Of a stretch of DNA of 10,833 nt, positions 1 through 10,833 are shown piece by piece. The stretch lies in the IMG/VR virus record IMGVR_UViG_3300027976_000024; one strand, given 5' to 3'. The stretch is from a virus. Numbering within the stretch: the stretch's first letter is position 1; each line of letters opens with the position of its first letter. A program made the translations under genes and the position numbers. A model generated the notes under the pieces. That model saw only the letters and a program-made list of their open reading frames with translations. It searched no databases and was not told the origin of the DNA.

Positions 1-102
1 AATCCAAGACAAAGATCAAATCCAAGACAAAGATCAAATCCAAGACAAAGATCAAATCCAAATCCAAATCCAAATCCAAGACAAAGATCAAATCCAAGAT
101 CG
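1..102. repeat. Tandem repeat: 18-mer AATCCAAGACAAAGATCA x3 (1-54), AATCCA x3 (55-72), 18-mer again (73-90), degenerate unit 91-102
   Basis: Direct reading. Perfect 18-mer copies, with the 6-mer being the first 6 nt of the 18-mer. No stop codon in any of the three + frames across the repeat. Frame 1 encodes (NPRQRS)n, frame 2 (IQDKDQ)n, frame 3 (SKTKIK)n. Confidence 0.9.
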
Positions 103-198
103 TGGGAAAACGGGTTTCGAGATTATCTTGACAGAATTTTTATTGAAATTAAGAAGACCAAATATGATAAAGTGGATTGGAAGAATGAGGGCTTCTAA
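1..198 (+). CDS. 3' end of a 5'-truncated gene (frame 1) with a repeat-encoded (NPRQRS)n(NP)n stretch and C-terminal ...LDRIFIEIKKTKYDKVDWKNEGF*
   Basis: Open from window edge to TAA 196-198. The C-terminal 23 aa resemble the C-terminus of ORF 2599-2823 (LDEFVRLLQQKNQDKVNWKVEGF). The reading frame is uncertain because frame 2 is also open through the repeat. Confidence 0.35.
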   Translation, partial: NPRQRSNPRQRSNPRQRSNPNPNPNPRQRSNPRSWENGFRDYLDRIFIEIKKTKYDKVDWKNEGF

Positions 199-262
199 TG
201 CTGAACGGTCTTTTAAGACATTTGATCGCAATAAGGTCAATTGGAAGGATGAAGGATTTTGA
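164..262 (+). CDS. Candidate mini-ORF or frame-2 gene end, ...FKTFDRNKVNWKDEGF*. Possible starts are ATG 164 or ATG 185, or it continues from the window edge in frame 2.
   Basis: Frame 2 is open from position 2 to TGA 260-262. The tail NKVNWKDEGF has mostly synonymous differences against the other two tail copies. Its stop overlaps the next start (TGATG at 260-264), and an SD-like GAAGGA sits at 251-256 for the downstream gene. Confidence 0.25.
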   Translation: MIKWIGRMRASNAERSFKTFDRNKVNWKDEGF

Positions 263-468
263 TGACGCCATCTGAAACAATAGAATTTGCACAAAAAATA
301 GACTGTACAGAGATGTATGTTGTGTGTATCGTGCATGATTTAAATATTGTTGAAGAAGAAATTAAGAAGATTAAAGATATGGGGTATGCAGCATATTTGC
401 GTACAACTGCAATGGGAAACGAAATAGTTGTGAGTCAAAAAATTGTTTTCAATGAAAAATGTATATAG
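262..468 (+). CDS. Hypothetical protein, 68 aa (MTPSETIEFAQKIDCTEMYVVCIVHDLNIVEEEIKKIKDMGYAAYLRTTAMGNEIVVSQ...)
   Basis: ATG 262 preceded by GAAGGA at 251-256. TGATG overlap with the upstream ORF stop. No recognisable motif. Confidence 0.5.
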   Translation: MTPSETIEFAQKIDCTEMYVVCIVHDLNIVEEEIKKIKDMGYAAYLRTTAMGNEIVVSQKIVFNEKCI

Positions 469-475
469 GTTTATC

Positions 476-646
476 ATGAAAAATCGCATCATTCCTTCTT
501 TAGTGTTAGCGATGTTAGCTCTGAACCTCGCTTTTTTTGTTTATAAATCCCATACCAGAAAGAGGATAGATCCTCTTCCTGTTGTTGAACTCGATCTTAT
601 TGAAGAACATAAGAAGCCTGAAATCATCCCTGTTGAGAGTTTTTAA
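476..646 (+). CDS. Small single-pass membrane protein, 56 aa (MKNRIIPSLVLAMLALNLAFFVYKSH...)
   Basis: ATG 476 (alternatives ATG 452 or TTG 443 in the same frame). One hydrophobic helix followed by a charged tail. Weak RBS. Confidence 0.4.
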   Translation: MKNRIIPSLVLAMLALNLAFFVYKSHTRKRIDPLPVVELDLIEEHKKPEIIPVESF

Positions 647-725
647 TGAATTCATCCACTGAGCCAATAACAAAATTTGTGCTTGAAAATTTGGAAAAAT
701 TTCATATGCAAAACACATTGTAGGA

Positions 726-754
726 TTGACAAGTCTTAAAAAATATACGATACT
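726..754 (+). promoter_or_regulatory. Candidate sigma70-like promoter: TTGACA (726-731), 17-bp spacer, GATACT (749-754)
   Basis: Perfect -35 hexamer and a 4/6 -10 hexamer at canonical spacing, about 60 bp upstream of the 817 start, in a 170-bp AT-rich gap. Confidence 0.35.
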
Positions 755-816
755 CAAACATGCCGTGATCAATACTGACTTTGTCAGTTCAAGAACTATG
801 TCTAGTGGAGGGTCGA

Positions 817-1437
817 ATGTTTGAGATTTTTCTGTTTGGTACGTTTTGGTTTTGGATGCTCATAGCATTAGAAATTGTCGTGCTGTTTGTGTTCATTGAG
901 AATGAGAATGGGGCGGGTGCCACTGTTTCTATGCTGTTGTTTGGAGCAATGCTTCAGTGGTTTGGGAATGTTGACATAATTCAGTACGTCAAATCCTATC
1001 CTCTTTTTATTCTATCCTGTGCAGGAGCCTATTTCGCACTGGGTGCTGTGTGGGGTGTTATAAAATGGTGGATATTCTGCCGAGATCGACTTGAAGATTA
1101 CGAAGAAGCTCGTGATATCTTTCTAAACGAAAACAAAGTTCCAGCCGGTACAAAAGTCGTGCCAGTTGAATTAAGACTGGCTTGGAAAGCAATACTTGAA
1201 AAAAGTTTTAAGACTGCGAGTCTTGTTGATGTTCCACAGGTTCGGACACACAAAGCTAAGATCATACGATGGATGACCTTTTGGGTCATCTCAATTATCT
1301 GGAGCTTTATCAATGATTTTGTGAAGCGAATCTTCCGCACGATTTACCAAAAGATTTCTAACTTCCTGCAAGGTATTTCGGATAAAATGTTTAGATCGGT
1401 CAAAAACGATTTAGAAATTCCAAATGAAGAAGAATAA
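817..1437 (+). CDS. Multi-pass integral membrane protein (4 predicted TM helices), 206 aa, unknown function
   Basis: ATG 817 with GGAGGG SD at 807-812. The ORF track's TTG 781 start is less likely. Hydrophobic helices FLFGTFWFWMLIALEIVVLFVFI, VSMLLFGAMLQWF, LFILSCAGAYFALGAVWGVIKWWIF and IIRWMTFWVISIIWSFI. Charged C-terminus. Confidence 0.6.
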   Translation: MFEIFLFGTFWFWMLIALEIVVLFVFIENENGAGATVSMLLFGAMLQWFGNVDIIQYVKSYPLFILSCAGAYFALGAVWGVIKWWIFCRDRLEDYEEARDIFLNENKVPAGTKVVPVELRLAWKAILEKSFKTASLVDVPQVRTHKAKIIRWMTFWVISIIWSFINDFVKRIFRTIYQKISNFLQGISDKMFRSVKNDLEIPNEEE

Positions 1438-1593
1438 ACGACAAGCATGATGCACTTCTCAATGATTGAGAAGGTCGATGTCAGGACGACGACTCATCAA
1501 GATGATGAGTAAATCAAGGATGATCTCAAGGATGAGTGGCAGAATGAATCTGCCTTTGGCAAGGATGCCAATTTTTGTAAAACCTACTTAGGT

Positions 1594-1631
1594 GAAAAAA
1601 AGGGAGCGACAATTGTCGCTCCCTTTTTTTG
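1594..1631. terminator. Rho-independent terminator, bidirectional in form: A7, stem GGGAGCGACA / TGTCGCTCCC (1602-1611 / 1614-1623), T7 (1624-1630)
   Basis: Perfect 10-nt inverted repeat with GC-rich base, flanked by A-run and T-run. Confidence 0.8.
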
Positions 1632-1668
1632 TTTGTGCTTTTCGTACATACATGTGGAGGGTACAAAT

Positions 1669-1941
1669 ATGCCAATCAAAAATGAAGTACAAAGTATTAA
1701 AGAATCTTTTCAGTTCTATATTCAACATGAAGATGTGGTCAACATGATGAACGACGCTGATGTTGCATTAGACAACAGGAACGTCGATTCTGGGCAAGTC
1801 TTTGAAGTTTGGTTAGAAAAAGCCAATGGTTCAAAACTTTACTTGCAAAAATTGGGAGCAACTGATAAAATAATGTTTAAGTTCGTTAAGATGACGGAAA
1901 CATCTTCATGGGTTCCGTTCGCCAATATCGACGTATCATAG
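1669..1941 (+). CDS. Hypothetical protein, 90 aa (MPIKNEVQSIKESFQFYIQHEDVVNMMNDADVALDNRNVDSGQVFEVWLEKANGSKLYLQKLG...)
   Basis: ATG 1669 with GGAGGG at 1656-1661 (7-nt spacer), immediately after the terminator. The ORF track's upstream TTG 1633 lies inside the terminator stem region and is rejected. Confidence 0.6.
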   Translation: MPIKNEVQSIKESFQFYIQHEDVVNMMNDADVALDNRNVDSGQVFEVWLEKANGSKLYLQKLGATDKIMFKFVKMTETSSWVPFANIDVS

Positions 1942-1950
1942 GAGGTTATC

Positions 1951-2103
1951 ATGTGGTGTTTAGAAACAATCGTTCGTATGAATCAACAGTCTCAAGAAAG
2001 TTGGTTGAGATCTCATCTCAAGGAGACTCCAGATGCTCCACAAAAAGATGAGAAAAAGCAGAAAAATCAGAACTGCACGACTCATGGACGTGCGGTGAAA
2101 TAA
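1951..2103 (+). CDS. Small basic hypothetical protein, 50 aa (MWCLETIVRMNQQSQESWLRSHLKETPDAPQKDEKKQKNQNCTTHGRAVK)
   Basis: Not in the ORF track (too short). ATG 1951 with GGAGG at 1941-1945, which overlaps the upstream TAG stop. Fills an otherwise empty 210-bp gap. Confidence 0.45.
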   Translation: MWCLETIVRMNQQSQESWLRSHLKETPDAPQKDEKKQKNQNCTTHGRAVK

Positions 2104-2152
2104 TTGGCGAACCTTTTTCGCTTAATGTGGTCAATGTAGCAGGAGAAAAATT

Positions 2153-2599
2153 ATGGCATTTGAAGAATCATTACGACAGCGTATCTCAGGTTTTCCTTAT
2201 GGGTCGCCTGAAAGAAATCTTCTCAAATTGGTTTTGGGAGAGCTTCAACAGAAGGCAACTGTTACTGATGAAATCGCTCATTCCATCGTTAAAAAGATAA
2301 TTAACGGCAATGAAGAAGTCATGGCAATGGTTGATGGTGATGGCAAACTTTTATTGGCAGAAGACGATTCACGACGTGCTCAATACACTCGTGAAAATGA
2401 GCTTTTGGCAGAACTTTTGCCAAAGTATTTAACTGTTGCTCAGATTCGTCAGAGCCTCGAAATTTCTGGTATAGATTTGAAGTCCGATGAAAAGGACGGA
2501 AAAGCTATTGGAAAAGCAATAGAGCATTTTAATAAACTTGCTTTTCCGTTTGAAGGACAGACTGTTAAGGATGTTGTTGTGGAGATGAGGAACAGTTGA
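2153..2599 (+). CDS. YqeY/GatB-C-terminal-domain-like protein, 148 aa
   Basis: AGGAG SD at 2141-2145. Pattern matches the YqeY-like family (PF09424-type). Landmarks line up: NLLKLVLGELQQ..., TDEIAHSIVKKII, ENELLAELLPKYLTVAQIRQSL (the LP-x-Y-L block), KDGKAIGKAIEHFNK, VKDVVVEM. Family call is from memory of the domain consensus. Confidence 0.55.
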   Translation: MAFEESLRQRISGFPYGSPERNLLKLVLGELQQKATVTDEIAHSIVKKIINGNEEVMAMVDGDGKLLLAEDDSRRAQYTRENELLAELLPKYLTVAQIRQSLEISGIDLKSDEKDGKAIGKAIEHFNKLAFPFEGQTVKDVVVEMRNS

Positions 2600-2823
2600 T
2601 GGCTTGGGTTATTTTAACCACAGTCACGATATTCTATACGGGTAAGTTTCTTCTGCTTTCATATGATTTTTTGAAAGTAGAAATTCCAATCACAGTAATT
2701 GAAACGGTTTTGGATAGAGAACTCAGTTTAAACGATTTGACGCCTCAGCAACTTGATGAGTTTGTTCGCCTGTTGCAACAAAAAAACCAAGACAAAGTAA
2801 ATTGGAAAGTAGAAGGATTTTGA
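2599..2823 (+). CDS. Small protein, 74 aa, hydrophobic N-terminus, C-terminal tail ...LDEFVRLLQQKNQDKVNWKVEGF*
   Basis: ATG 2599 overlaps the upstream TGA (TGATG). GAGGAA SD at 2587-2592. Shares the C-terminal tail motif with the ORF ends at 198 and 262. Confidence 0.55.
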   Translation: MAWVILTTVTIFYTGKFLLLSYDFLKVEIPITVIETVLDRELSLNDLTPQQLDEFVRLLQQKNQDKVNWKVEGF

Positions 2824-2851
2824 TTATTGTGCTAAAGAAGGAGGAAGTTCG

Positions 2852-3463
2852 ATGAGCAGTGTATTTGCACGACGAAGATGTCTGGTACTCAATAAAACTT
2901 GGACTCCGGTTGGCACCGTATCTCTGCAAAGAGCAATCATTATGCTGTTTTCAGAATATGGAAACGGCGAGCCAAAGGCTCGTGTTATTGAGCCAGAAAG
3001 CTATCAGACATTTTCATGGAATGAATGGGCGTTACAACAGCCTGTGGAAACAGATGAAGTGATTCAAGGTGCCAATATGGCCTTTAAGGTGCCTGAGATT
3101 ATTCTGTTGACAAGTTATGATCGTCTTCCGCAACCGAAGATTCATTTTTCTCGACGTACTTTGTACAAGAGAGACAATATGCAGTGTCAATACTGTAAAT
3201 GTCGTCCTAAAAGTGAATTTTTGACAATTGACCACGTTAAACCAAAATCAAGGGGTGGAGGAACTACATGGGAAAACTGTGTACTTGCTTGCGTAGAGTG
3301 CAATGCTCGTAAAGCTAACAGAACTCCGTCTGAAGCACGTATGACGTTGCTGAATGAGCCGAAGAAACCACGGGTTCATTTGTTTCGGTACGACTCAATC
3401 AAGCCGGTCAAGTCGTGGGAAGCATTTCTTGGACTTTCCTATTGGTCAGTTAATGAAGAATAA
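2852..3463 (+). CDS. HNH endonuclease (McrA/YisB-like family), 203 aa
   Basis: AAGGAGG SD at 2838-2844. C-terminal HNH/zinc motif QCQYCKCRPKSEFLTIDHVKPKSRGGGTTWENCVLACVECNARKANR. N-terminal LVLNKTWTPVGTVSLQRAIIMLF is typical of this HNH subfamily. Confidence 0.8.
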   Translation: MSSVFARRRCLVLNKTWTPVGTVSLQRAIIMLFSEYGNGEPKARVIEPESYQTFSWNEWALQQPVETDEVIQGANMAFKVPEIILLTSYDRLPQPKIHFSRRTLYKRDNMQCQYCKCRPKSEFLTIDHVKPKSRGGGTTWENCVLACVECNARKANRTPSEARMTLLNEPKKPRVHLFRYDSIKPVKSWEAFLGLSYWSVNEE

Positions 3464-3467
3464 CAAA

Positions 3468-3499
3468 AATCCCTGTCAGATCTCTGACAGGGATTTTTT
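3468..3499. terminator. Bidirectional rho-independent terminator between convergent genes: stem AATCCCTGTCAGA / TCTGACAGGGATT (3468-3480 / 3483-3495) followed by T6, with an A-run upstream
   Basis: 13-nt near-perfect inverted repeat with T-tracts on both strands, sitting between the + gene ending at 3463 and the - gene ending at 3547. Confidence 0.8.
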
Positions 3500-3546
3500 C
3501 GTTAGATTCACACACTTCTAGGCGGCAATATTGTCAAACTGACTCA

Positions 3547-4239
3547 TTACACAGGTCTAAAACGGGGTTCTGGTTTTGGATTTGCAATTTCGTATTCTTT
3601 AATTTTTTCTTTCGCCCAGTCGTTCATTGATGCGATTTCTTCGGACATTTCTCCGTAAAACTTTGTAGTGTCACTTGTTGCATTGTATAGATCGAAAATA
3701 AGTTTCATCATCTTTGGATCGGAATAATCCTTGACAGTTGGTGCTAGTTCTTGAATTGATGCTTTTATTTCTTCAACTGTTTTAATTGCACTTTTTCTGC
3801 TTATTGCAGTAATTGCTTCAACATCTTCTGGACCCGTTGTTTTGTTAGTTTGAATCATTTTGCCACCACGAGTTCTTTCGCCTTTTCTACTGGTTAATCC
3901 AAGTTTTTTTTCTGCAACGGACGCTGCAAGCTTTTCTGCGTATTTCATGTCATTTGCTGTGTCATAAACAGCAAGTTCTGGTCTTTTTTCTTTTCCTTGT
4001 TGCCAATCTCGATTTGAGAGTTCTCTATCTTTAGGAGCCCCCAGATCTATAATATTTTTATCATTTCTTCCCATCTGTCCATCTCTAGGTGTAGCTGGAG
4101 CATGTGGACTAATATTCCTGTTAGAATATTGTGATGGAGACCCTTGTGGACGCATTTCAAGCAAAACAGCTTCATTAAGCTTCGATTGTTGGATATGTTC
4201 GTAGAATTGGTAAAAACTGGTTGTTGGAAAGCTGGACAT
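3547..4239 (-). CDS. Hypothetical protein, 230 aa, largely low-complexity/disordered (S/P/R/K/E-rich) with a helical C-terminal part
   Basis: ATG (complement of 4237-4239) with AGGAG SD 5 nt upstream on the minus strand. No recognisable catalytic motif. Confidence 0.6.
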   Translation of the reverse strand: MSSFPTTSFYQFYEHIQQSKLNEAVLLEMRPQGSPSQYSNRNISPHAPATPRDGQMGRNDKNIIDLGAPKDRELSNRDWQQGKEKRPELAVYDTANDMKYAEKLAASVAEKKLGLTSRKGERTRGGKMIQTNKTTGPEDVEAITAISRKSAIKTVEEIKASIQELAPTVKDYSDPKMMKLIFDLYNATSDTTKFYGEMSEEIASMNDWAKEKIKEYEIANPKPEPRFRPV

Positions 4240-4310
4240 CGTAACTCCTGTCTAAAGATCTTTAAGTTATTTAGACTTGAAATCCAAAAATTGTACCCGG
4301 AAATTAGAAC

Positions 4311-4324
4311 TTTGAACTTTCAAA
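4311..4324. promoter_or_regulatory. Perfect palindrome TTTGAA-CT-TTCAAA in the divergent intergenic region, a candidate operator
   Basis: 6-2-6 inverted repeat located between the divergently transcribed genes 3547-4239 (-) and 4405-5040 (+). Confidence 0.3.
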
Positions 4325-4349
4325 TCTTGTAATTGAGGAGTCAACTGGT

Positions 4350-4378
4350 TTTTCAATGGCTCGCATAAATATTATCAT
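4350..4378 (+). promoter_or_regulatory. Candidate promoter for gene 4405: TTTTCA (4350-4355), 17-bp spacer, TATCAT (4373-4378)
   Basis: 5/6 match to the -10 consensus, weak -35, correct spacing, about 27 nt upstream of ATG 4405. Confidence 0.25.
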
Positions 4379-4404
4379 CATCAAATTTAATAAGGACTAA
4401 ATTC

Positions 4405-5040
4405 ATGAATGTAAATATCCCTGTAATTGAGGCTAAAGTTAGACTCGAATATATGAACCAAAATCTTCCTGAATTTGTAGGTAAGTTTGCTGAATGTCAA
4501 ATTTTTGGGATGGCCTCAATCCCAGGACAGACTCCATTATTTCATTTCCTGTGTGATGATGGCGGCGTTTATTGGAGAATGCCTATTCATGCTTTCTGTT
4601 GGAGAACCGACGCTACAACTCCACTTCTTGAAGATGTAGCTCTGTGGGACTCATTTTCCTATCACGCTTCAGTCTTCACTATTGATATGTTCAAGAACAA
4701 AAGAGTTTCCTATGTGGACCGATCGAAGCATGAACAACAAGGCTGTTATCTGTTTACAATCGATTGGTTTGGAGACAATGGAAAGTCCTATGGATTTTCC
4801 GAAGCACCTGGACAACATAAATGTGGGCACGTTCTGAAACTTGACAACGGTAATTTTGCAATCCAACCCAACAATCGATTGAAGATCTTCGATCCTAATT
4901 TCACAGTTGAAGACGTTTGTTATCCAAGGATGCTGGCGAGAACCTTATATTCATCAGAACAATCTGGGCGATGGCGAACTGCCAATGACGAAAAATATGA
5001 CTATGAGATCCACGATATTAACGGTCGATCCACTACATAA
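4405..5040 (+). CDS. Hypothetical protein, 211 aa (Cys/Trp/His-rich; ...FHFLCDDGGVYWRMPIHAFCW...HKCGHVLKLDNGNF...)
   Basis: ATG 4405 with TAAGGA SD 8 nt upstream. No family recognised. Confidence 0.6.
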   Translation: MNVNIPVIEAKVRLEYMNQNLPEFVGKFAECQIFGMASIPGQTPLFHFLCDDGGVYWRMPIHAFCWRTDATTPLLEDVALWDSFSYHASVFTIDMFKNKRVSYVDRSKHEQQGCYLFTIDWFGDNGKSYGFSEAPGQHKCGHVLKLDNGNFAIQPNNRLKIFDPNFTVEDVCYPRMLARTLYSSEQSGRWRTANDEKYDYEIHDINGRSTT

Positions 5041-5044
5041 AGAT

Positions 5045-5401
5045 ATGCGAAATTTCAAAATTTGGATTGAAGATTCAGTACCTTACAAACAGAAAGATAT
5101 GAGTTTTCTGGATTTTGCAAAAAAAAGACACGATGGAGCAGAGAAAATAAGCATAAATGCAAAGGAAAAAGCTGGCATAGCGATGCTTACATATCACCAC
5201 TTTAACGTGAAACTGCCACATTATAAGAATGCTGCCGATGGGAAATTTGACCTCAAGAAAGCAAACAATGAATACAAATCTGTATGTTCGGAACTTCATT
5301 CATATATGGAAAATATCGGCAAGGTTGATGAAGTTAAATTCCAAAAATTAGTAGGCGAGATAGAAGTTCTTGGCGAATTAATCATTAAAAGTTCAACTTG
5401 A
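5045..5401 (+). CDS. Hypothetical protein, 118 aa (MRNFKIWIEDSVPYKQKDMSFLDFAKKRHDGAEKISINAKEKAGIAMLTYHHFNV...)
   Basis: ATG 5045 lies 4 nt after the TAA of the upstream gene. The ORF-track version starting at 4907 overlaps the upstream gene by 134 nt in another frame and is rejected. Confidence 0.5.
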   Translation: MRNFKIWIEDSVPYKQKDMSFLDFAKKRHDGAEKISINAKEKAGIAMLTYHHFNVKLPHYKNAADGKFDLKKANNEYKSVCSELHSYMENIGKVDEVKFQKLVGEIEVLGELIIKSST

Positions 5402-5433
5402 TCCCCATTGTTATGCCATCGAGAAGTAGCACC

Positions 5434-5876
5434 TCAAAACTTTTTCCCTGCTAATTGACAGCACATCTGATCATAAGACCACAATCCAGCAGCCGGTACG
5501 TCCTTGTGCCACAACAACTGATAGTCGTGAGTACCTTTGTACTGTCCAATCAATCCGCTAAAGTGGGCCTCACCACAGTTCTTATACAAGTTCTCAAAGA
5601 ATGATTTGTCTGTGTCTTTTGCCCAAGGCTTGCCTTCTACCTGCTTTGTATTGTCCTTGAACCATGCGCCATGCTCTTTGCAACAAGATAATCTCCACGC
5701 AACTTGAGTAGCATCAACATTGTTGACTGGATTGATGCTTCCACTGTGGATATTGAATTTTCCAGTTACGTTGTTGACATTCTCACTTTTGTAGAAAAAT
5801 GGGTTGTAAAGATGAATATGGCTATAACAATATAAAGCTTTTGGGTTATTGTTTTTACGGGCGTGGTTTTAATCAT
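5434..5876 (-). pseudogene. Frameshift-interrupted gene: ATG/TM mini-ORF (5876..5766, MIKTTPVKTITQKLYIVIAIFIFTTHF...) plus a -1-frame 144-codon start-less ORF (5868..5434, Cys-rich). One extra base in the A5/T5 run at 5795-5799 would fuse them into a roughly 170-aa type-II membrane-anchored protein.
   Basis: Manual translation. The long ORF has no ATG/GTG/TTG for about 96 codons. The upstream ATG ORF is in the other frame and ends within the overlap. The junction is the homopolymer CATTTTTCTAC (minus strand). It lies 28 nt downstream of the GT32-like gene stop, with a weak AAGAG SD. Confidence 0.45.
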
Positions 5877-5904
5877 GTTATTATTTACTCTTTGTGGAAA
5901 CTTC

Positions 5905-6885
5905 TCAAATCAACCATTGAACAGGTGATTTTATTATGAAATTGAATGTGCCGTCATCGCATTTTGCATTATTTATTTTATCAATATCAAACAAAGACAT
6001 TTGTTGTGATAAACATGTTTCCAGTTCTGATTCTGTGAATATCAATTTAAGATCTTTTTCTGTAAGAACTTTTGTTATGTTGTCATAGAATTCTTTGAAC
6101 AGTAGACAAGCCAATCCTCTTGAGTGATCTCTTTCTGTAATCCTCTTGGCTGTTGGGTTTTTGATCATCATGCCGTTGCAGTGCAGCATCTTCAATTGAT
6201 CTGGGTTGAGATTATGGATTTTTCTGAGAACTCCATGTTCGAGATCAGGTATGATCTCAAACATATGACTCATTCCTGTTTCATTCATATATCTCAGTAT
6301 TGTCTCGTCCCAAATATACGGCCAAGAATTGTAATTTGTTGATTCTTTGATGATGTCACAGAATTTTTGATTTCTTAATGCAGTGATGGAATAAGAATCA
6401 AACACACTGAACATTTCTTGAACGACTGGAGATTGGTGGTTGTAATAGAAAAAACCACTGTTGAATCCATCAAAACAAAATTTTTCGGAATTGCATTCAA
6501 GTGGCAGTGGATTCTTTAACCAAAAAACATCTGAGTCGCAGTAAATGATTGTCTCATGTGACAAATCGGGTTTTCGAATGTCAAACAATCTCGATAAAAG
6601 TTGGTATCCGACTATGTGTGAATAGTGTTCTTCTAAATGAAAGTTCGTCGGCACAACATCAAATTTTAGTGTTTTTTGAAAGTGCATCCAATCTGAGTTT
6701 GTCCAAGGATCTGTCGATTTATCATAATGTGGAGGATAGTTAGAAATGTTTAACACTTTGATTGGGATGTTAGGATTGACCGATCTGAGTGTTGCTATAG
6801 ACAATAATATTGGGTGAGACATATTTGAATAGGCGGGCTGTTCATTTGGACCAGCCCACCAGTGATAAACAACAGTTGGCATCAT
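5905..6885 (-). CDS. GT-A glycosyltransferase, GT32/Och1-like (DXD sugar-binding region; Gly_transf_sug-type), 326 aa
   Basis: N-terminal VVYHWWAGP, which fits the IHxxWxG pattern. SVNPNIP. DXD block ETIIYCDSDVFWLKNP preceded by HIVGYQLLSRLF. ATG overlaps the upstream stop (ATGA at 6882-6885) and GAGGAAA SD. Confidence 0.6.
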   Translation of the reverse strand: MMPTVVYHWWAGPNEQPAYSNMSHPILLSIATLRSVNPNIPIKVLNISNYPPHYDKSTDPWTNSDWMHFQKTLKFDVVPTNFHLEEHYSHIVGYQLLSRLFDIRKPDLSHETIIYCDSDVFWLKNPLPLECNSEKFCFDGFNSGFFYYNHQSPVVQEMFSVFDSYSITALRNQKFCDIIKESTNYNSWPYIWDETILRYMNETGMSHMFEIIPDLEHGVLRKIHNLNPDQLKMLHCNGMMIKNPTAKRITERDHSRGLACLLFKEFYDNITKVLTEKDLKLIFTESELETCLSQQMSLFDIDKINNAKCDDGTFNFIIKSPVQWLI

Positions 6886-7643
6886 AGTATTTCCTCATTT
6901 CTGTATTTCAGCATATCTTGTCTTAAAATTTGCGGCAATGGTTTGTTCCATTTTTTACAGAGTCTCAATCCATTTTCTATAAATAGTTTTTTTTGATCTT
7001 TTACACCATAAGTGAGAGGCGGATGCCACAGGTGAATTTCTGTTTCTTCTCTGTAAATTGATTTAATTCCATACTTCTCCATTGTGAATGTCATATCTGT
7101 ATCTTCCCATCCATAACCAACATATAATTCGTCCATGCCTCCAGCGTTAATGAAATCAGATTTCATTAACGCTATGTTACCTGACCAAGCATTTTTTGTC
7201 CCAAGTTCATTTGTTGTGCTACGATTGTCCCAAAAAAAATCAATATCTCCGTCAATTATTTTTGAGTCGCTGTATTCAGATTTTAGTTTTTTTGTAGGAC
7301 TTGTTGTAATTTGTATGCCAAATTTAAGTTGGTTCATTACAGAATTAAAGTATTCGGTTGGAAGTATTCTATCGCTATCCAAAATGAAGATTTTTTCATA
7401 TTTTGCTTTTGTGATTCCAAAATTTGTAATACAGCAAATGCTCATCTCTTCAAATCCAAAATTAAAATTCAAATGGGACTTCCAATGTTTTGTTGGTAAA
7501 GGATCTGTTAATTTATTTTGACACAGAGTGATAAGTTCGGAGTTTTCAATGACATCTTTGTGCCACAGATCCATGAACCTTAACATTTGCTTAAGATTGT
7601 CTAATCTTTCTGTGTGAAATTTAATGATAAATGAAGCTGACAT
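6882..7643 (-). CDS. GT-A glycosyltransferase, beta-1,4-galactosyltransferase-like (GT7/GT2 Glyco_transf_7C-type), about 253 aa
   Basis: The beta4GalT-like order SFIIKFHTERLDNL...ELITLCQ...FNFGFEE...KIFILDSDRILP, plus the C-terminal YVGYGWEDTDM (WGxEDxD) motif. The true start is taken as ATG 7643 (MSASFIIKF...) rather than the track's TTG 7706. Confidence 0.55.
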   Translation of the reverse strand: MSASFIIKFHTERLDNLKQMLRFMDLWHKDVIENSELITLCQNKLTDPLPTKHWKSHLNFNFGFEEMSICCITNFGITKAKYEKIFILDSDRILPTEYFNSVMNQLKFGIQITTSPTKKLKSEYSDSKIIDGDIDFFWDNRSTTNELGTKNAWSGNIALMKSDFINAGGMDELYVGYGWEDTDMTFTMEKYGIKSIYREETEIHLWHPPLTYGVKDQKKLFIENGLRLCKKWNKPLPQILRQDMLKYRNEEIL

Positions 7644-7656
7644 TCTATAATTTAGT

Positions 7657-8430
7657 ATGAGAAAAAATCTTTTGATAGCCTGTGTGGGTCCGACATCTTT
7701 ACACAAGCAGTGGATTTGTGGCGACAGAGATTTCGATCTGATGATAGTTCATTATGGCGATGGCGATTCTTATGTCGGTGATGGGGAATATTACATTAAA
7801 GCCAAAGGAACTAAGTTTAACATAATAGGCGATATCTCTCATAAAATTCCTAAAGAATATGAATATATTTTCATTCCTGATGATGATCTTGCTATGTCTT
7901 GTCAAAGTATAAACAGATTGTTTGGGATTGCCAGACAATACGATTTGAAGATTTGTCAGCCATCATTGGTTGGATACTATTCTATTCCTCTGAATTTGCA
8001 TAGTCCCGGATCTATTTTGAGATATACAGATTATGTTGAGATCATTTGTCCTTGCTTTGAGAGGTCTACATTTGAGTCATGCCGATCTACGTTCAATCAC
8101 AACAGTAGTTGCTGGGGCATTGATTTATTGTGGGGCGTGGTTTTGGATCATCCAAAAGACGCTATAGCTGTTATTGATGATGTAATTGCCATTCACACGA
8201 GACCATGTTATCAGGGCGACAATTACTCGAATAACAACATAGACAGCCCACAACTTGATCTAAAGAAGATAATAGAAGAAAATGGTTTGTCTTATCGAAG
8301 AACAGTATACAAAACTGTGGAAAAAGAAGAAGATTACAGTAAGCCATCAGAAACTAGAATTTACCCAAACGTTGATTTAATGTTGCAGTTTTGTAATCAA
8401 CTTGGAAGAAAAAGGTTTGTCGATATTTAA
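7657..8430 (+). CDS. DUF707-like protein (PF05212-type, a plant-associated GT-A-like family), 257 aa
   Basis: DFDLMIVHYGDGD, YEYIFIPDDDLAMS and KICQPSL match my memory of the conserved blocks of DUF707 (DFDLLLFHYDG / YEYIFLWDEDLGV / ISQPAL). The start is only 13 bp from the divergent GT start at 7643. Confidence 0.5.
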   Translation: MRKNLLIACVGPTSLHKQWICGDRDFDLMIVHYGDGDSYVGDGEYYIKAKGTKFNIIGDISHKIPKEYEYIFIPDDDLAMSCQSINRLFGIARQYDLKICQPSLVGYYSIPLNLHSPGSILRYTDYVEIICPCFERSTFESCRSTFNHNSSCWGIDLLWGVVLDHPKDAIAVIDDVIAIHTRPCYQGDNYSNNNIDSPQLDLKKIIEENGLSYRRTVYKTVEKEEDYSKPSETRIYPNVDLMLQFCNQLGRKRFVDI

Positions 8431-8466
8431 ATTCCAGTATCTGGCAAAGTTCCTAACATTGAATCA

Positions 8467-8925
8467 TTAAATTCCTGCTCTTTCAATTTGCTCCTTAATC
8501 TCTCTCAACAAAACTGAAGATTTGTCTGGCTGTACAATTGTTTCTTTTAAAGATCCATAATGAATTTCTAAACATTCTATCAATAGTGTTTTTATTTTAT
8601 TTTTGTCTGGTCCTGAAGGCAAAGAACTTTTGGCATATAATTCTTCTAGTTGTTTTTCTTTATTTTGTGCCCATTCTTTAATTTGGCGGACATCCCATTC
8701 TCCTCTACGGATGCTTTTTAATTGTTCTTTGTGTCTTCTTATATCTAAATCGCATTCCGCTAAGATCTGTTCAGCTTCTAGCAATAATCTAACAACGTGC
8801 ATTGCATATTTTGTGTCATAAGAATTAATTTTAACATTCTCTGCTCTTTTTGATTCATCTATAGCGTTTTTGTAAAGATGATAATAGTGTTCTAATTCTT
8901 TATCGTTCAATTCATTTAATTCCAT
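8467..8925 (-). CDS. Hypothetical alpha-helical protein, 152 aa (…KYAMHVVRLLLEAEQILAECDLDIRRHKEQLKSIRRGEWDVRQIKEWAQNKEKQLEELY…)
   Basis: ATG 8925 overlaps the upstream HEG end by 14 nt. Charged helical composition, and no HEPN Rx4-6H motif found. Confidence 0.5.
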   Translation of the reverse strand: MELNELNDKELEHYYHLYKNAIDESKRAENVKINSYDTKYAMHVVRLLLEAEQILAECDLDIRRHKEQLKSIRRGEWDVRQIKEWAQNKEKQLEELYAKSSLPSGPDKNKIKTLLIECLEIHYGSLKETIVQPDKSSVLLREIKEQIERAGI

Positions 8926-9682
8926 TGTTTTCTACAACCTTTTTGCAAAATTCCACAAATTCATCTGTTGTTAAATTTCTTTTCATTAAATTTATTGTTT
9001 TATGAACCCATTGTAAGTTTTCTTTTACATAACCTAAAGAACTGTTTATTCTGTCTAAAGAAGCTGTTTGTATTTTTGATTGATTAGAAAATGTTAGTTT
9101 AATTCCAGACAATGCACAAGTTCTGTTTTGTTCTAAAAATAAATTCCAACAATATTTTATATCAACTTCAACATTTATATTTCTTGTTTTTGCGTTAGCC
9201 TTTAATCTGGCCCAAAATTGTCCAGATATTTCTTCATATGCAGTTCTTTTTAATTTATCGCCAAATAATTTTCTGTATTTTTTATCTCTATTTTCCCAAA
9301 TGTTTTTACATCTAATTTTATGTTGAAGCAACTTGCTTTGATCTGCAATTGATTTTTTGAAAGGATTGTTATCTCCAGATACGTTTGCATGATTTATTGA
9401 CATTTTTTTACGAGTGTCACTGTTGTGTCTTCTGCCAAAAAAAGGATTATTTTCTCCTGTGAATTTTTTTGACATTAAATTTTTTTGTTGTTCAGAGCAA
9501 GGAGTTCCTTTAGGGCGACCAGATTTTTTATCACTTCTTTTATAGAATCCTTTCGGAATGTGAATTTCGTATTTTTTTAAATAATTAACTATTGTAGTTT
9601 TAGAACAATTGAAAATTTTTTTTAACGATTCACACGATTTATTATCACTAATATGGTCCAACAATTCTTCTTTGTATATCAT
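8912..9682 (-). CDS. Homing-endonuclease-like protein: N-terminal HTH, NUMOD3-like repeats, C-terminal HNH-variant nuclease motif; 256 aa
   Basis: NUMOD3-like GENNPFFGRRHNSDTRKKMS and GDNNPFKKS. C-terminal CALSGIKLTF...ASLDRINSSLGYVKENLQWVHKTINLMKRNLTTDEFVEFCKKV, the D-R-I...N-L-Q-W-V...N pattern of phage free-standing HNH endonucleases. AGGA SD. Very AT-rich. Confidence 0.6.
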   Translation of the reverse strand: MIYKEELLDHISDNKSCESLKKIFNCSKTTIVNYLKKYEIHIPKGFYKRSDKKSGRPKGTPCSEQQKNLMSKKFTGENNPFFGRRHNSDTRKKMSINHANVSGDNNPFKKSIADQSKLLQHKIRCKNIWENRDKKYRKLFGDKLKRTAYEEISGQFWARLKANAKTRNINVEVDIKYCWNLFLEQNRTCALSGIKLTFSNQSKIQTASLDRINSSLGYVKENLQWVHKTINLMKRNLTTDEFVEFCKKVVENNGIK

Positions 9683-9708
9683 TGATTATCCTGACATAAA
9701 TAAAATGG

Positions 9709-10332
9709 TTATGCTTTATTTATGATCAGACCTCTGTTTTTTATTTCTTGTTCTAATTGTTTGAATGATATTTTGTGAGAAATTCCTTTTTCTTGTTCGA
9801 AATTCTTTAGTTTTTGTAATCCTTTAGGTGATTTATTTTCAAGTTTTGCTAATTGCGAATATGCGTATCCTTTAAATTTTGCAAAACATCCTTTGTGCAA
9901 AAACAATTTACGATTTTCTCTTAAAAGATTTCCAGCCTGAGTAATTATTAAAATATGTTCATGAGATGTGAATAACGTGTCTACACATGACGGATTATTT
10001 TCCAACAGTAATTTAAAGAATTTTATGATGTTATAAACACTTACATCATATTCTCTTCCTTTACCACCAAGAGCATCTTTGTCAAAAATATGATGACATT
10101 GAAATTGTTGAAAACAATCAATGTCATCGAATCCATAAATTTTACCATTTAGGTGTGGAAAAATTTCTATTTTTGGCGGTATGCAAACACCGTAGAGATC
10201 AATATCAGAATCTGCTGTTGTGTCTGCGGCCCCATAAGAGACAGATCCTGTAATTGTTAAATAAATTGTATTTTGCACCACCCATGGTGGCGGAGAAATC
10301 AGTTTTTTGTCTTGTAAATCTTTGAGAATCAT
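9709..10332 (-). CDS. Pol-beta-superfamily nucleotidyltransferase, PF10127 (RlaP)-like, 207 aa
   Basis: ITGSVSYGAADTTADSDIDLYGVCIPP is the hG[GS]-x(9-13)-D-h-[DE] NTase signature with the GV...P continuation seen in the PF10127 family. AAGGAAGGG SD upstream of ATG 10332. Confidence 0.55.
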   Translation of the reverse strand: MILKDLQDKKLISPPPWVVQNTIYLTITGSVSYGAADTTADSDIDLYGVCIPPKIEIFPHLNGKIYGFDDIDCFQQFQCHHIFDKDALGGKGREYDVSVYNIIKFFKLLLENNPSCVDTLFTSHEHILIITQAGNLLRENRKLFLHKGCFAKFKGYAYSQLAKLENKSPKGLQKLKNFEQEKGISHKISFKQLEQEIKNRGLIINKA

Positions 10333-10427
10333 TGAATGCCCTTCCTTGGGATTGTTGACACAGGATACCAGAAAAGGTTCATTTGTGAAACATCAAATTA
10401 AAATCTACATAAGCCATGGAATCATTC

Positions 10428-10833
10428 ATGTATGTTTATTTTTCTGATTCAAGCTTAAGGCAGCTTCGTTTATTGGTGCTTAGCGTTATCACAGTCAGGT
10501 GTTTCTATTTAGACTCGTCAATCGTGGTGATTGATTACTCAAGTGACGATCGTTTGGAGCATTTCTCCAAGATGTTCGACTTCAAGATCATCAAAAAAGC
10601 TCCTTGTTATGTTAATAACAAAAATATTGGCGTGAATATGGTTTCCAAGCCAATGGACTGCATGAATGTTGGTCGTCAATTGGGATTGAATGATGTTGTT
10701 GTATTGGATAGTGATGTGTTTTTGTTGAATAGGTTCAAAGATTTGGATTTTTCTAAGTTCTCGATGTTGTTTCAGCAAGGAGGATTAAAGAATAGCGGAA
10801 TATTGTCTTTCTCTATTAATTCAGAGGCCATTC
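10428..10833 (+). CDS. Glycosyltransferase-like protein (GT-A, DXD), 3'-truncated at the window edge; start uncertain
   Basis: Open frame running off the window. IVVIDYSSDDRLEHF (a DDGSxD-like block), then ...NVG..., then VVVLDSDVFLL (a DXD block). First in-frame ATG is 10428, after a stop at 10356, with a weak RBS. The antisense track ORF 10539-10778 is rejected. Confidence 0.45.
   Translation, partial: MYVYFSDSSLRQLRLLVLSVITVRCFYLDSSIVVIDYSSDDRLEHFSKMFDFKIIKKAPCYVNNKNIGVNMVSKPMDCMNVGRQLGLNDVVVLDSDVFLLNRFKDLDFSKFSMLFQQGGLKNSGILSFSINSEAI

Follow-up and report, generated by a model that had tools for sequence, protein, structure and literature searches.

Four putative glycosyltransferase genes lie close together in DNA attributed to an uncultured virus, raising the question of which enzymes they encode and on what acceptor these might act. 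Within 5 kb (positions 5905-10833) of the window, the whole 10,833-nucleotide stretch that was analysed, four genes encode GT-A-fold glycosyltransferases in which the DxD motifs for metal and nucleotide sugar are intact. Pfam matches, structure models, motifs and family profiles all confirmed the original prediction in this respect, and the cluster is genuine: an uncultured large aquatic phage carrying genes for four sugar-adding enzymes. Genes B (6882-7643, minus strand) and A (5905-6885, minus strand) are flanked, as had been predicted, by the DUF707 gene C (7657-8430, plus strand) and by a DXD-containing gene at the window edge (10416-10833, plus strand). The products of the complete genes A, B and C are acidic, soluble proteins (pI 5.5-6.3, net charge -2 to -9, no hydrophobic segment), and SD-like motifs precede most genes of the window. 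Positions 5434-5904 contain no glycosyltransferase gene, just a 144-codon open frame with neither a start codon nor homologues.

Gene B was assigned as a soluble inverting-type GT-A glycosyltransferase, GT2/GT7C-like, on the basis of its family profile and its match to Pfam Glyco_transf_7C (PF02709, 30 bits, cut-off 23), accompanied by weaker GT2_2 and GT21 matches. It conserves the motifs (D/E)SD, GYGW(A/E/D)DxD and a C-terminal HLWH, and D91, G176-Y177-G178, D181, D183, E202, H204 and H207 are invariant in its homologues. The B family profile reached the K4CP chondroitin polymerase at E 2e-5 and CHSY3 at 5.5e-3, whereas beta4GalT1 was not significant (E 0.2-0.6); chondroitin polymerases are thus nearest to B. 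A TTG at 7706 was rejected as the start of B in favour of the ATG at 7643, since orthologues share the N-terminus MxxSFIIxFHT. With this start B and C do not overlap, and their divergent start codons, on opposite strands, are separated by a 13-nt spacer (7644-7656) holding a TATAAT 5 nt upstream of the ATG of C. The spacer of one relative, L014, is near-identical (AACTCAATTATAGA vs ACTAAATTATAGA), and the L014 proteins are 51-68% identical.

The 326-aa product of gene A gave an AlphaFold2 model with a pLDDT of 92, for which the best PDB folds found by Foldseek were GlyE, glycogenin, LARGE1, WbbM, LgtC and PBCV-1 A64R (E 1e-6 to 8e-4), all retaining GT-A enzymes. Its BFVD matches were viral GT8 and Nucleotid_trans proteins, with giant-virus proteins topping the list and an S-SCSM1 glycosyltransferase among them. 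Across 33 homologues, D117-x-D119 and H235 do not vary, nor do Y115, N142, G144, D193 and E194. Fold and invariant motifs point to a soluble retaining-type GT-A glycosyltransferase with a GT8/GT77-like fold (pI 5.75, no TM segment) and an extra helical region at the C-terminus. The GT32/Och1-like identity originally proposed for A was rejected: PF04488 matched neither A nor any of 112 family members, and hhalign of the A family against a related-phage PF04488 protein gave nothing. A itself had no Pfam match above threshold; PF03407 was weakly matched by 21 of the 112 members and PF01501 (GT8) by none, and the family profile returned zero PDB sequence matches. The family comprises 235 cluster representatives among 1.84e9 proteins and is present on three IMG/VR viral contigs of 177-459 kb; it was absent from 185,579 GTDB bacterial and archaeal genomes in a short-peptide-pattern scan, which distant cellular homologues could escape. 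A is a member of a small family without Pfam assignment, so far seen solely on phage-like contigs.

The edge ORF (139 codons, with a DSD motif) is open at the end of both the window and the source contig. It matched the A-family profile (E 9.9e-10), and P0040, its sole homologue cluster in 5.8e9 proteins, aligned with the A family in hhalign (97% probability, E 9.5e-11), identifying it as a truncated, distant paralogue of A. Gene C scored 37.5 bits for PF05212 (DUF707; cut-off 24.1), consistent with its predicted label, and 32 of its 33 homologue clusters carry the same domain. Its AF2 model (pLDDT 91) matched the GT-A folds of TarP, RmlT, BoGT6a, SpsA and GalNAc-T, and P74-D75-D76-D77 is invariant, suggesting a soluble glycosyltransferase-like protein with a DDD motif. 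Homologues of C and of A were found on common contigs. The description of these genes as belonging to families best known in eukaryotes was overstated, since their nearest solved relatives (GlyE, LgtC, WbbM, K4CP, TarP and RmlT) are mixed bacterial, eukaryotic and viral.

Mobile genes had been thought to interleave with the cluster, which applies to one of three ORFs, 8912-9682 (minus strand), a homing-endonuclease-like gene matching NUMOD3 (46.8 bits) and, in part, the group I intron endonuclease model TIGR01453. Pfam assigned no catalytic domain to the endonuclease, and Rfam found no group I intron. The other two ORFs are the halves of an RlaP (pol-beta-type nucleotidyltransferase) gene into which the endonuclease gene is inserted: 9709-10332 (minus strand) encodes the N-terminal catalytic half (PF10127 positions 19-144, E 7e-11) and 8467-8925 (minus strand) the C-terminal half (PF10127 positions 124-245), aligning to the corresponding parts of intact RlaP in L005 and L006. 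In L006 a homologous endonuclease ORF lies immediately upstream of the intact RlaP gene. The division of RlaP by a NUMOD3 gene into a catalytic and a C-terminal ORF, with a short duplication at the junction, resembles the phage 'genes in pieces'; a Seg-like endonuclease gene is likewise located at the RlaP homologue of a Rhizobium phage.

Direct reading of the sequence bore out the predicted translational coupling of B and A, the stop of B overlapping the start of A in an ATGA at 6882-6885 (minus strand). Adjacency and the 4-nt overlap recur in six relatives (L005, L006, L008, L009, L014 and L015), and in relatives with a GC content of 31.6-64.2% the two genes invariably adjoin and overlap, C and the edge paralogue of A being lineage-variable. 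The B-A pair is maintained throughout a lineage of large phages. L016, a 2.9-kb contig, is the sole example in which B and A are fused in one reading frame; one indel at the ATGA overlap could give rise to such a fusion. Searching GenBank phages by tblastn yielded no A or B homologue, and no cultured phage with either gene was found, in keeping with the earlier statement that this family combination lacks a demonstrated function.

The evidence for phage identity is indirect, since neither a capsid nor a terminase gene was seen in the ~30 kb available of the window's genome. Together with the split RlaP neighbour and the frame without a start codon adjoining A, this could be taken to mean that the genes belong to a chromosomal LPS island or are decaying, which we regard as highly improbable. 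A, B and C retain intact motifs, and their full-length orthologues share 34-74% identity; a PurM-like phrog_3704 gene matches 114 phage records, neighbouring ORFs have many strong PHROG matches, and relatives occur in IMG/VR. No locus contained cellular housekeeping genes, and the short-peptide-pattern scan of GTDB genomes found no A homologue. The predicted phage context with SD sites is likewise supported by the SD-like motifs and by the phage-like relatives (contigs of 90-693 kb, GC 32-64%).

In the relatives, the islands next to B-A are variable and encode sulfotransferases, methyltransferases and nucleotide-sugar enzymes, comprising tailoring genes (Sulfotransfer_1/2/3/4, Methyltransf_23/24, a carbamoyltransferase, and LicD with a cytidylyltransferase) and nucleotide-sugar supply genes (Glf, MIOX, RmlC-like, DegT aminotransferase, hexapeptide transferase and WbqC). 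A radical SAM/SPASM gene also occurs there, and in L006 a PKD/Ig-like protein is encoded between RlaP and B-A. The window's own genome has GT9-like (heptosyltransferase family), RmlC-like and RpiB-like genes ~10 kb away. Most neighbours are translation or RNA-repair genes (RlaP, RF-1, YqeY-like, PTH2, CCA-adding enzyme and RNA ligase). Views of +/-10 kb around the loci contained no Wzx, Wzy, ABC exporter, priming transferase or Gtr, and none of the relatives has a capsid, portal or tail gene less than 10 kb from the cluster.

Remodelling of the host surface and glycosylation of the virion are the two leading candidate roles. We favour, with a probability of about 0.35, a phage glycan-building toolkit that operates in the cytoplasm of the infected cell and assembles a glycan stepwise on a phage-made acceptor, for example a virion protein. 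B and then A, or the reverse, would act successively on one acceptor, adding one beta-linked and one alpha-linked sugar, and the product may be a repeating disaccharide, as the pairing of an inverting with a retaining enzyme is the architecture of the bifunctional polymerases LARGE1, WbbM and K4CP. C and the edge enzyme would add further residues; in relatives, the neighbouring sulfotransferases, methyltransferases, carbamoyltransferase and LicD might tailor the glycan, with precursors provided by phage nucleotide-sugar enzymes. The most speculative step concerns the acceptor: it would be a macromolecule made by the phage, the likeliest choice being a virion protein, as known from chloroviruses, mimiviruses and mycobacteriophages. 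A phage-made acceptor is suggested by the confinement of family A so far to phage-like contigs, by the conservation of the B-A pair across phages of widely differing GC, and by the lack of accompanying lipid-carrier priming, flippase or export genes. The folds resembling A include those of the capsid-glycosylating A64R and of the polymerases LARGE1 and WbbM, in line with the favoured assembly, which the PKD/Ig-like protein gene of L006 also supports. Counting against it are the absence of structural genes within 10 kb in the relatives and the predominance of translation and RNA-repair neighbours; in mycobacteriophages the glycosyltransferase genes are located in the structural operon. GT8-type, GT9-type and DUF707 enzymes are, moreover, typical of LPS/LOS core synthesis, a pathway needing no phage exporter, and phage GT-A enzymes are able to glycosylate DNA.

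The first of these last two points bears on the host envelope. Sugars could be added, at the cytoplasmic membrane face, to LPS/LOS core, O-unit, capsule or teichoic-acid intermediates, and the altered glycan exported by host MsbA or Wzx, leading to receptor masking, superinfection exclusion or altered grazing. Similar islands of large cyanophages are as a rule interpreted in this way (PMC12801897), and we hold such a role to be possible but tentative here. LgtC, an LPS-core enzyme, and WbbM, an O-antigen polymerase, belong to the fold class of A, the nearest solved folds to C are the teichoic-acid glycosyltransferases TarP (prophage-encoded) and RmlT, and DUF707 is found in an Acinetobacter LOS outer-core locus; the GT9-like, RmlC-like and RpiB-like genes of the same genome fit as well, and Glf, WbqC, DegT and LicD in relatives are typical of O-antigen and teichoic-acid loci. 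However, host-derived phage surface-glycan genes usually have close bacterial homologues, which the GTDB genomes did not provide for family A; B-A is conserved over phages of 32-64% GC, whose host glycans should differ; and a priming transferase, flippase, polymerase, ligase and exporter were absent from all neighbourhoods examined.

The GT-A fold had been taken to exclude DNA as the acceptor, a view now outdated because Pyle et al. (doi 10.1101/2023.12.21.572611) showed GT-A folds for most of the phage enzymes that glycosylate 5hmC. In DNA hypermodification a first sugar would be placed on 5-hydroxymethyl-cytosine or -uracil and then extended, guarding the genome from restriction and CRISPR. 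The first-sugar enzymes of that study resemble JGT and TarP, the latter being their top PDB match as it is for C, the second-sugar ones resemble GT8 enzymes and A64R, as A does, and its 'subclass I' clusters contain two successive glycosyltransferase genes (doi 10.1101/2023.12.21.572611). Nevertheless, any GT2-like GT-A protein commonly has TarP as its top match, A, B and C carry a net negative charge, and although hydroxymethylation pathways are usually clustered, no C5-methyltransferase, TET/JBP-type dioxygenase or thymidylate-synthase-like hydroxymethylase was found within +/-10 kb in the window genome and seven relatives, so that we consider a DNA acceptor unlikely. Still less probable, in our estimation, is glycosylation of host proteins or RNA for takeover, by toxin-type GT-A action on translation factors or GTPases or by tRNA queuosine glycosylation. 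The conserved translation and RNA-repair neighbours would suit such a role, and retaining GT-A toxins share the fold class of A; but toxin glycosyltransferases were not specifically similar among the top 50 fold matches of A, and the many tailoring and nucleotide-sugar genes of relatives point to a complex glycan, not a single-sugar switch.

Compared with known systems, A and the edge paralogue share the fold of GT8-type retaining enzymes (glycogenin, LgtC, GlyE, LARGE1 Xyl-T and the WbbM GT8-like domain) and of Nucleotid_trans (GT77-type) proteins, with a Foldseek probability of 1.0 (E 1e-6 to 2.5e-4) and with a DxD and a distal conserved His in A, but the identity to A is 10-16% and the TM-score just 0.43-0.48. 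B has in common with K4CP, CHSY and beta-1,4-galactosyltransferase (Glyco_transf_7C) the GWxDxD acid motif and a C-terminal His, but lacks a Glyco_transf_7N part and a membrane anchor; instead of a two-domain polymerase it is a 253-aa protein with one domain, coupled to a retaining enzyme encoded separately. C is a sequence-level member of DUF707 (PF05212), none of whose proteins has been characterised, although plant members are thought to be active on cell-wall glycans (PMC3522684); its resemblance to TarP amounts to a TM-score of ~0.5 at 13% identity.

PBCV-1 A64R, the mimivirus glycan clusters and mycobacteriophage capsid and tail-tube glycosylation likewise combine soluble virus GT-A enzymes with methyltransferases and nucleotide-sugar enzymes, without export. 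The similarity of A64R to A is, however, weak (E 8e-4, TM 0.29), and the present cluster has no adjacent structural genes. To our knowledge, sulfotransferases are not a described feature of virus protein-glycosylation systems. Phage DNA-glycan clusters resemble the locus in having successive GT-A genes in uncultured phages, but differ in that a C5-methyltransferase, 5mYOX or ThyS gene is not nearby here and the proteins are acidic, and the sulfo-, carbamoyl- and methyltransferases of the relatives go unmentioned for those clusters (Pyle et al., doi 10.1101/2023.12.21.572611). Among large aquatic phages, the cyanomyoviruses S-SCSM2R, S-SCSM1 and P-SSM2 cluster glycosyltransferase and nucleotide-sugar genes (PMC12801897), and moraphages have four core glycosyltransferase orthogroups (PMC12619734). 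These islands, whose functions are putative, share such clustering with the present locus but not its conserved coupled B-A pair, which occurs on contigs of up to 693 kb and has no homologue in GenBank phages. Clusters of glycosyltransferase genes have been described before in big aquatic phages; here, two of the four genes form a tightly coupled pair that a whole lineage of large phages has retained.

The window corresponds, in reverse complement, to positions 1-10833 of JGI contig Ga0335396_10005858 (L003 among the related metagenomic loci compared here, L001-L016) and carries four genes that had been read as GT-A-type glycosyltransferases: gene A (5905-6885, minus strand, 326 aa), gene B (6882-7643, minus strand, 253 aa), gene C (7657-8430, plus strand, 257 aa) and a truncated edge gene (10416-10833, plus strand) that runs past the end of both the window and the source contig. 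Pfam matches, structural models and homology to the A family bore out this reading. Each of the four has a DxD-type acidic motif for metal and nucleotide-sugar, and all are predicted to be GT-A-fold glycosyltransferases of the Leloir type. Genes A, B and C encode acidic products (pI 5.5-6.3) that lack any hydrophobic segment; judged from their sequences they are probably soluble cytoplasmic enzymes, unlike Och1 and beta4GalT, which are Golgi-anchored.

Gene A received no Pfam, NCBIfam or PHROG assignment, and none of its 38 further homologue clusters (34-65% identity) contains a Pfam domain. The top 50 PDB fold matches of its AlphaFold2 model (pLDDT 92, pTM 0.91) were almost all GT-A enzymes, including the retaining enzymes GlyE, glycogenin, the xylosyltransferase domain of LARGE1, WbbM, UGGT, LgtC and XXYLT1, with the PBCV-1 capsid glycosyltransferase A64R as a weaker match; giant-virus and phage proteins of the GT8 and Nucleotid_trans types were the best viral-model matches. 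Residues Y115, D117, D119 and H235 are invariant in 33 sequences, the DxD motif being D117-S-D119, and on the model the GT8 hallmarks of a retaining GT-A fold, a DxD and a distal metal-binding His (H235) appear to be conserved. None of the 112 A-family members scanned individually matched PF01501 (GT8), and the gene A profile found no match among PDB sequences. Against PF03407 (Nucleotid_trans, GT77-type), gene A scored 13.6 bits vs a cut-off of 22, and 21 of 112 relatives matched weakly at E ≤ 0.01 (best 1.5e-5). The original prediction of a GT32/Och1-like enzyme was not upheld: PF04488 did not match gene A at E ≤ 1 or any of 112 family members at E ≤ 0.01, and hhalign of the A family with a PF04488 protein of the related locus L005 gave a probability of 0.2%. 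The type II membrane anchor that is a trait of eukaryotic Golgi GT32 enzymes is likewise absent, the N-terminus being hydrophilic and the top Kyte-Doolittle 19-residue mean being 0.98.

The edge ORF, rightly singled out as a DXD glycosyltransferase, has a single homologue cluster, P0040. The A-family profile matched P0040 with 97% probability by hhalign and the edge fragment itself at E 9.9e-10, indicating that the edge gene is a distant paralogue of gene A. It carries a D-S-D motif, and a GT-A fold is predicted for it because its first 139 residues are homologous to the A family.

Gene B matched PF02709 (Glyco_transf_7C) with 30 bits against a cut-off of 23, GT2-type matches being weaker, and its GT-A fold is a prediction from Pfam. 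Nine B-family members retain (D/E)SD, GYGW(A/E/D)DxD and ExHLWH, with D91 of (D/E)-S-D91 invariant. Among solved structures, the B-family profile matched the chondroitin polymerase K4CP (E 2e-5) and also CHSY3. The supposed beta4GalT-like character of gene B was thus retained as regards the PF02709 match and the GYGW(A/E/D)DxD motif, but gene B has no Glyco_transf_7N match and beta4GalT1 was not significant with the B-family profile (E 0.23-0.6). Gene C proved to be the divergent DUF707-like gene that had been described, scoring 37.5 bits against PF05212 (cut-off 24.1), a family detected in 32 of the 33 C homologue clusters. Its P74-D75-D76-D77 motif is invariant, and the top 50 PDB matches of its AlphaFold2 model (pLDDT 91) were almost all GT-A enzymes, TarP and RmlT first; the base-J glucosyltransferase (JGT) was absent from the PDB match list. 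Searched against PDB sequences, the C profile gave only spurious matches to designed FN3 proteins.

B ends and A starts within one shared ATGA at 6882-6885, exactly as had been noticed, and B and A are adjacent with the identical overlap in six relatives (L005, L006, L008, L009, L014 and L015), in agreement with the translational coupling proposed for the pair. The GC content of the B-A loci ranges from 31.6 to 64.2%. In L016 (1058-2773; JGI 3300037042, Ga0393277_0030960), a single 2.9-kb contig, full-length B and A homologues lie in one frame of ~560 aa. Either the two genes are naturally fused there or an indel has struck the ATGA overlap; the frame may be a hint of a Rosetta-stone link between B and A. 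A sulfotransferase-like gene adjoins it.

For gene B, the TTG at 7706 chosen by the ORF caller was dropped and the ATG at 7643 preferred; the B orthologues all start MxxSFIIxFHT at the place of this ATG. With the start at 7643, B and C are divergent, their start codons lie 13 nt apart and the genes do not overlap. In the spacer, a TATAAT precedes the C start codon by 5 nt; neither B nor C has an SD, and the C transcript may be leaderless. Promoter and terminator scans of 5300-10833 gave nothing better than shuffled sequence. The divergent arrangement of C and B-A about a spacer with TATAAT was also found in L014, and contigs with A homologues also carry C homologues. The two spacers (7644-7656 in the window and 9229-9242 in L014), which leave 13-14 nt between the divergent starts, are nearly identical, although the proteins of the window and L014 are only 51-68% identical. 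On the other side of the pair, downstream of gene A, a gap of 500 nt is largely filled by a start-less 144-codon open frame (5434-5868, minus strand) with no ATG, GTG or TTG before its last 51 codons; it found no match in Pfam, in phages by tblastn or in the related loci of other strains, and could be what remains of a gene, or else a gene that starts in an unusual way.

Between gene C and the edge gene lie the two halves of a gene for RlaP, a pol-beta-type nucleotidyltransferase: the C-terminal half at 8467-8925 (minus strand, PF10127 positions 124-245) and the N-terminal half at 9709-10332 (minus strand, PF10127 positions 19-144). Against the intact RlaP of L005 and L006 they align end to end, a junction of ~10 residues is duplicated between them, and the NUMOD3 endonuclease ORF that separates them (8912-9682, minus strand) marks a gene split by a homing endonuclease. 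Of the mobile genes said to be interleaved with the glycosyltransferases, the endonuclease gene was therefore confirmed, whereas the ORFs flanking it are the halves of RlaP. The idea that a group I intron or an intein surrounds the endonuclease was rejected, since Rfam gave nothing there at E ≤ 1 and each RlaP half is an ORF of its own with its own start. Just upstream of the intact RlaP of L006 lies a related endonuclease ORF. Six independent assemblies (L001, L002, L004 and L011-L013) end at 8649, inside the C-terminal half, a pattern suggesting that some members of the population carry the insertion and others lack it. Among phage records without B-A, 665 have an RlaP homologue, one of them with a Seg-like endonuclease gene at RlaP. 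This makes RlaP a gene widespread in phages and a site of recurrent homing, not evidence of a sugar pathway, and a role as a dedicated part of such a pathway was rejected.

The phage context proposed for the locus is well supported, if indirectly, since no capsid or terminase gene was seen in the ~30 kb read of the source genome (at least 96 kb). SD-like motifs stand upstream of most genes, as originally described, and together with an intrinsic terminator at 1595-1630 they point to a bacterial host. The site has the look of a bidirectional intrinsic terminator, with a perfect 16-bp GC-rich hairpin that has an A7 run on one side and a T7 run on the other (z = -6.5, -34 kcal/mol over 1575-1660); weak, spurious Rfam matches that cluster at 1436-1690 are explained by this hairpin. 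A PurM-like phrog_3704 gene (4405-5040, plus strand) has 30-45% identity to genes in 114 phage records, mainly of cyanophages and pelagiphages and also of Flavobacterium phages; it has no Pfam match, is labelled variously 'ferredoxin', 'PurM' or hypothetical across records, and its final 56 nt are overlapped by an ORF at 4985-5401. Identical copies of gene A occur in several samples on contigs up to 96 kb, and the contigs of relatives measure 90, 177, 239, 288, 459, 477 and 693 kb, three being IMG/VR viral contigs. An exhaustive profile search among 1.84 billion found only 235 cluster representatives of the A family, and a scan of 185,579 bacterial and archaeal genomes in GTDB, which hinges on two short peptide patterns as seeds, found no A relative. 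Many of the ORFs flanking the relatives have strong PHROG matches, and no cellular housekeeping genes were found around them. A chromosomal LPS island was rejected on the strength of the IMG/VR relatives, the lack of any A relative in GTDB and the PHROG-rich flanks. Among GenBank phages, megablast of the whole window and tblastn of A and B gave no match, tblastn of C gave one unannotated gut fragment only, and a 466-aa neighbour in the relatives had no match.

Conservation extends beyond the B-A pair. An HNH protein of 203 aa (2852-3463, plus strand; phmmer E 1e-81 to 1e-95 in L005, L006, L008 and L009) keeps its position relative to B-A, a YqeY-like gene and a membrane protein in these four loci and in L014 and L015, and so behaves as a core gene of the lineage rather than a mobile element. 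A membrane protein at 817-1437 (plus strand) is multi-pass with hydrophobic N-terminal segments, has no family match, is conserved in L005 (phmmer E 1e-79) and L006 (5e-69), and is the sole membrane protein near the cluster. B-A, RlaP and HNH keep their synteny over GC contents of 31.6-64.2% and on contigs as long as 693 kb, which implies that this lineage of large phages is old and has diverse hosts.

Genes for translation and RNA repair recur beside B-A in L005, L006, L008, L011, L014 and L015. In four relatives a PCRF/RF-1 gene lies directly downstream of A, where the window has none; the YqeY-like gene, PTH2, a CCA-adding enzyme and an RNA ligase are other recurrent neighbours, and a tRNA-Arg(TCT) lies near B-A in the window's genome. 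This company is the sole suggestion that the enzymes serve host takeover by glycosylating a host protein or RNA, a reading we consider very improbable.

The variable flanks of the relatives encode several families of sulfotransferases, SAM methyltransferases, radical SAM/SPASM proteins, GT2 and GT32-like proteins, Glf, MIOX, SDR, LicD with a cytidylyltransferase, a carbamoyltransferase, WbqC, a DegT aminotransferase, a hexapeptide transferase and a PKD-domain protein. RmlC-like, RpiB-like, GT2-SPASM and GT9-like genes lie ~10 kb upstream in the window's own genome. Whether the genome encodes nucleotide-sugar genes, a question raised by the original prediction, is answered in part by these genes. 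The GT9-like gene, the kinship of A and C with enzymes of LPS and teichoic-acid type and a cyanophage precedent (PMC12801897) would fit a remodelling of the host envelope, which we regard as possible though doubtful; no flippase, polymerase, exporter or priming transferase was seen in any neighbourhood view. The Pfam families of a Gtr module (GtrA flippase, GtrB bactoprenol glucosyltransferase and membrane GT-C) were likewise not found, and no TM segment is present in A, B or C.

DNA had been set aside as an acceptor because of the GT-A fold, an argument that does not hold, since GT-A enzymes of the structural types of A and C glycosylate 5hmC (Pyle et al., doi 10.1101/2023.12.21.572611). Glycosylation of DNA is nevertheless unlikely here: the proteins are acidic and there are no base-hydroxymethylation genes nearby, Pfam annotation of the 10 kb on either side, in seven relatives as well as the window's genome, revealing no C5-MT with 5mYOX and no ThyS-like enzyme.

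The presence, integrity and linkage of the genes were observed directly, and their mechanism is inferred. Gene B bears the acid-base motif of inverting enzymes, and the modelled fold of gene A is that of a retaining enzyme. LARGE1, WbbM and K4CP are bifunctional polymerases, in which an inverting and retaining pair builds alternating disaccharides; LARGE1 and WbbM are matches of A, and K4CP is a match of B. By analogy with these polymerases, we propose that the coupled or fused pair would extend one acceptor by two sugars in succession, possibly in repeated rounds, with further residues coming from C and the edge enzyme. We put at roughly 35% the reading that the acceptor is made by the phage and is most likely a virion protein. 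In its favour are the confinement of family A to phage-like contigs, the conservation of B-A over very different GC contents, the lack of export genes and a toolkit like that of giant viruses. Against it stands the lack of structural genes nearby. The large neighbours in the relatives (1039, 611, 466-477 and 393 aa) had no structural PHROG or Pfam match. Tentatively, a lineage of large-to-huge aquatic phages (contigs of 90-693 kb, GC 32-64%) might run its own cytoplasmic glycosylation around the phage-restricted B-A pair, placing on virion proteins a repeating or decorated glycan that is sulfated, methylated or carbamoylated in some members. If true, this would be a bacteriophage counterpart of the glycan machinery of giant viruses.

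Glycosyltransferase islands are common in large aquatic phages. To our knowledge, beyond T-even DNA glucosylation, Gtr-type seroconversion, TarP and the virion glycans of mycobacteriophages, almost no such island has a demonstrated acceptor. Islands rich in these enzymes have already been described, one cyanomyovirus having 13 glycosyltransferases including GT10, GT11, GT24 and GT25 (PMC12801897) and the moraphages four core glycosyltransferase orthogroups (PMC12619734), and the present finding is a sound annotation that will not surprise the specialist and a useful test case. New are a predicted glycosyltransferase family, represented by A and its edge paralogue, that lacks a Pfam assignment and was found only on phage-like contigs, the conserved coupling of A to B across one lineage of large phages, and the range of glycan-tailoring genes beside the pair. 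The locus offers a compact and testable case in a conserved, sometimes fused two-enzyme module, and its relatives reveal how a glycan toolkit diversifies around B-A. Proof of the acceptor, be it virion protein, DNA or envelope, would give a function to several hundred uncharacterised metagenomic proteins and would also tell whether huge phages glycosylate autonomously, like giant viruses.
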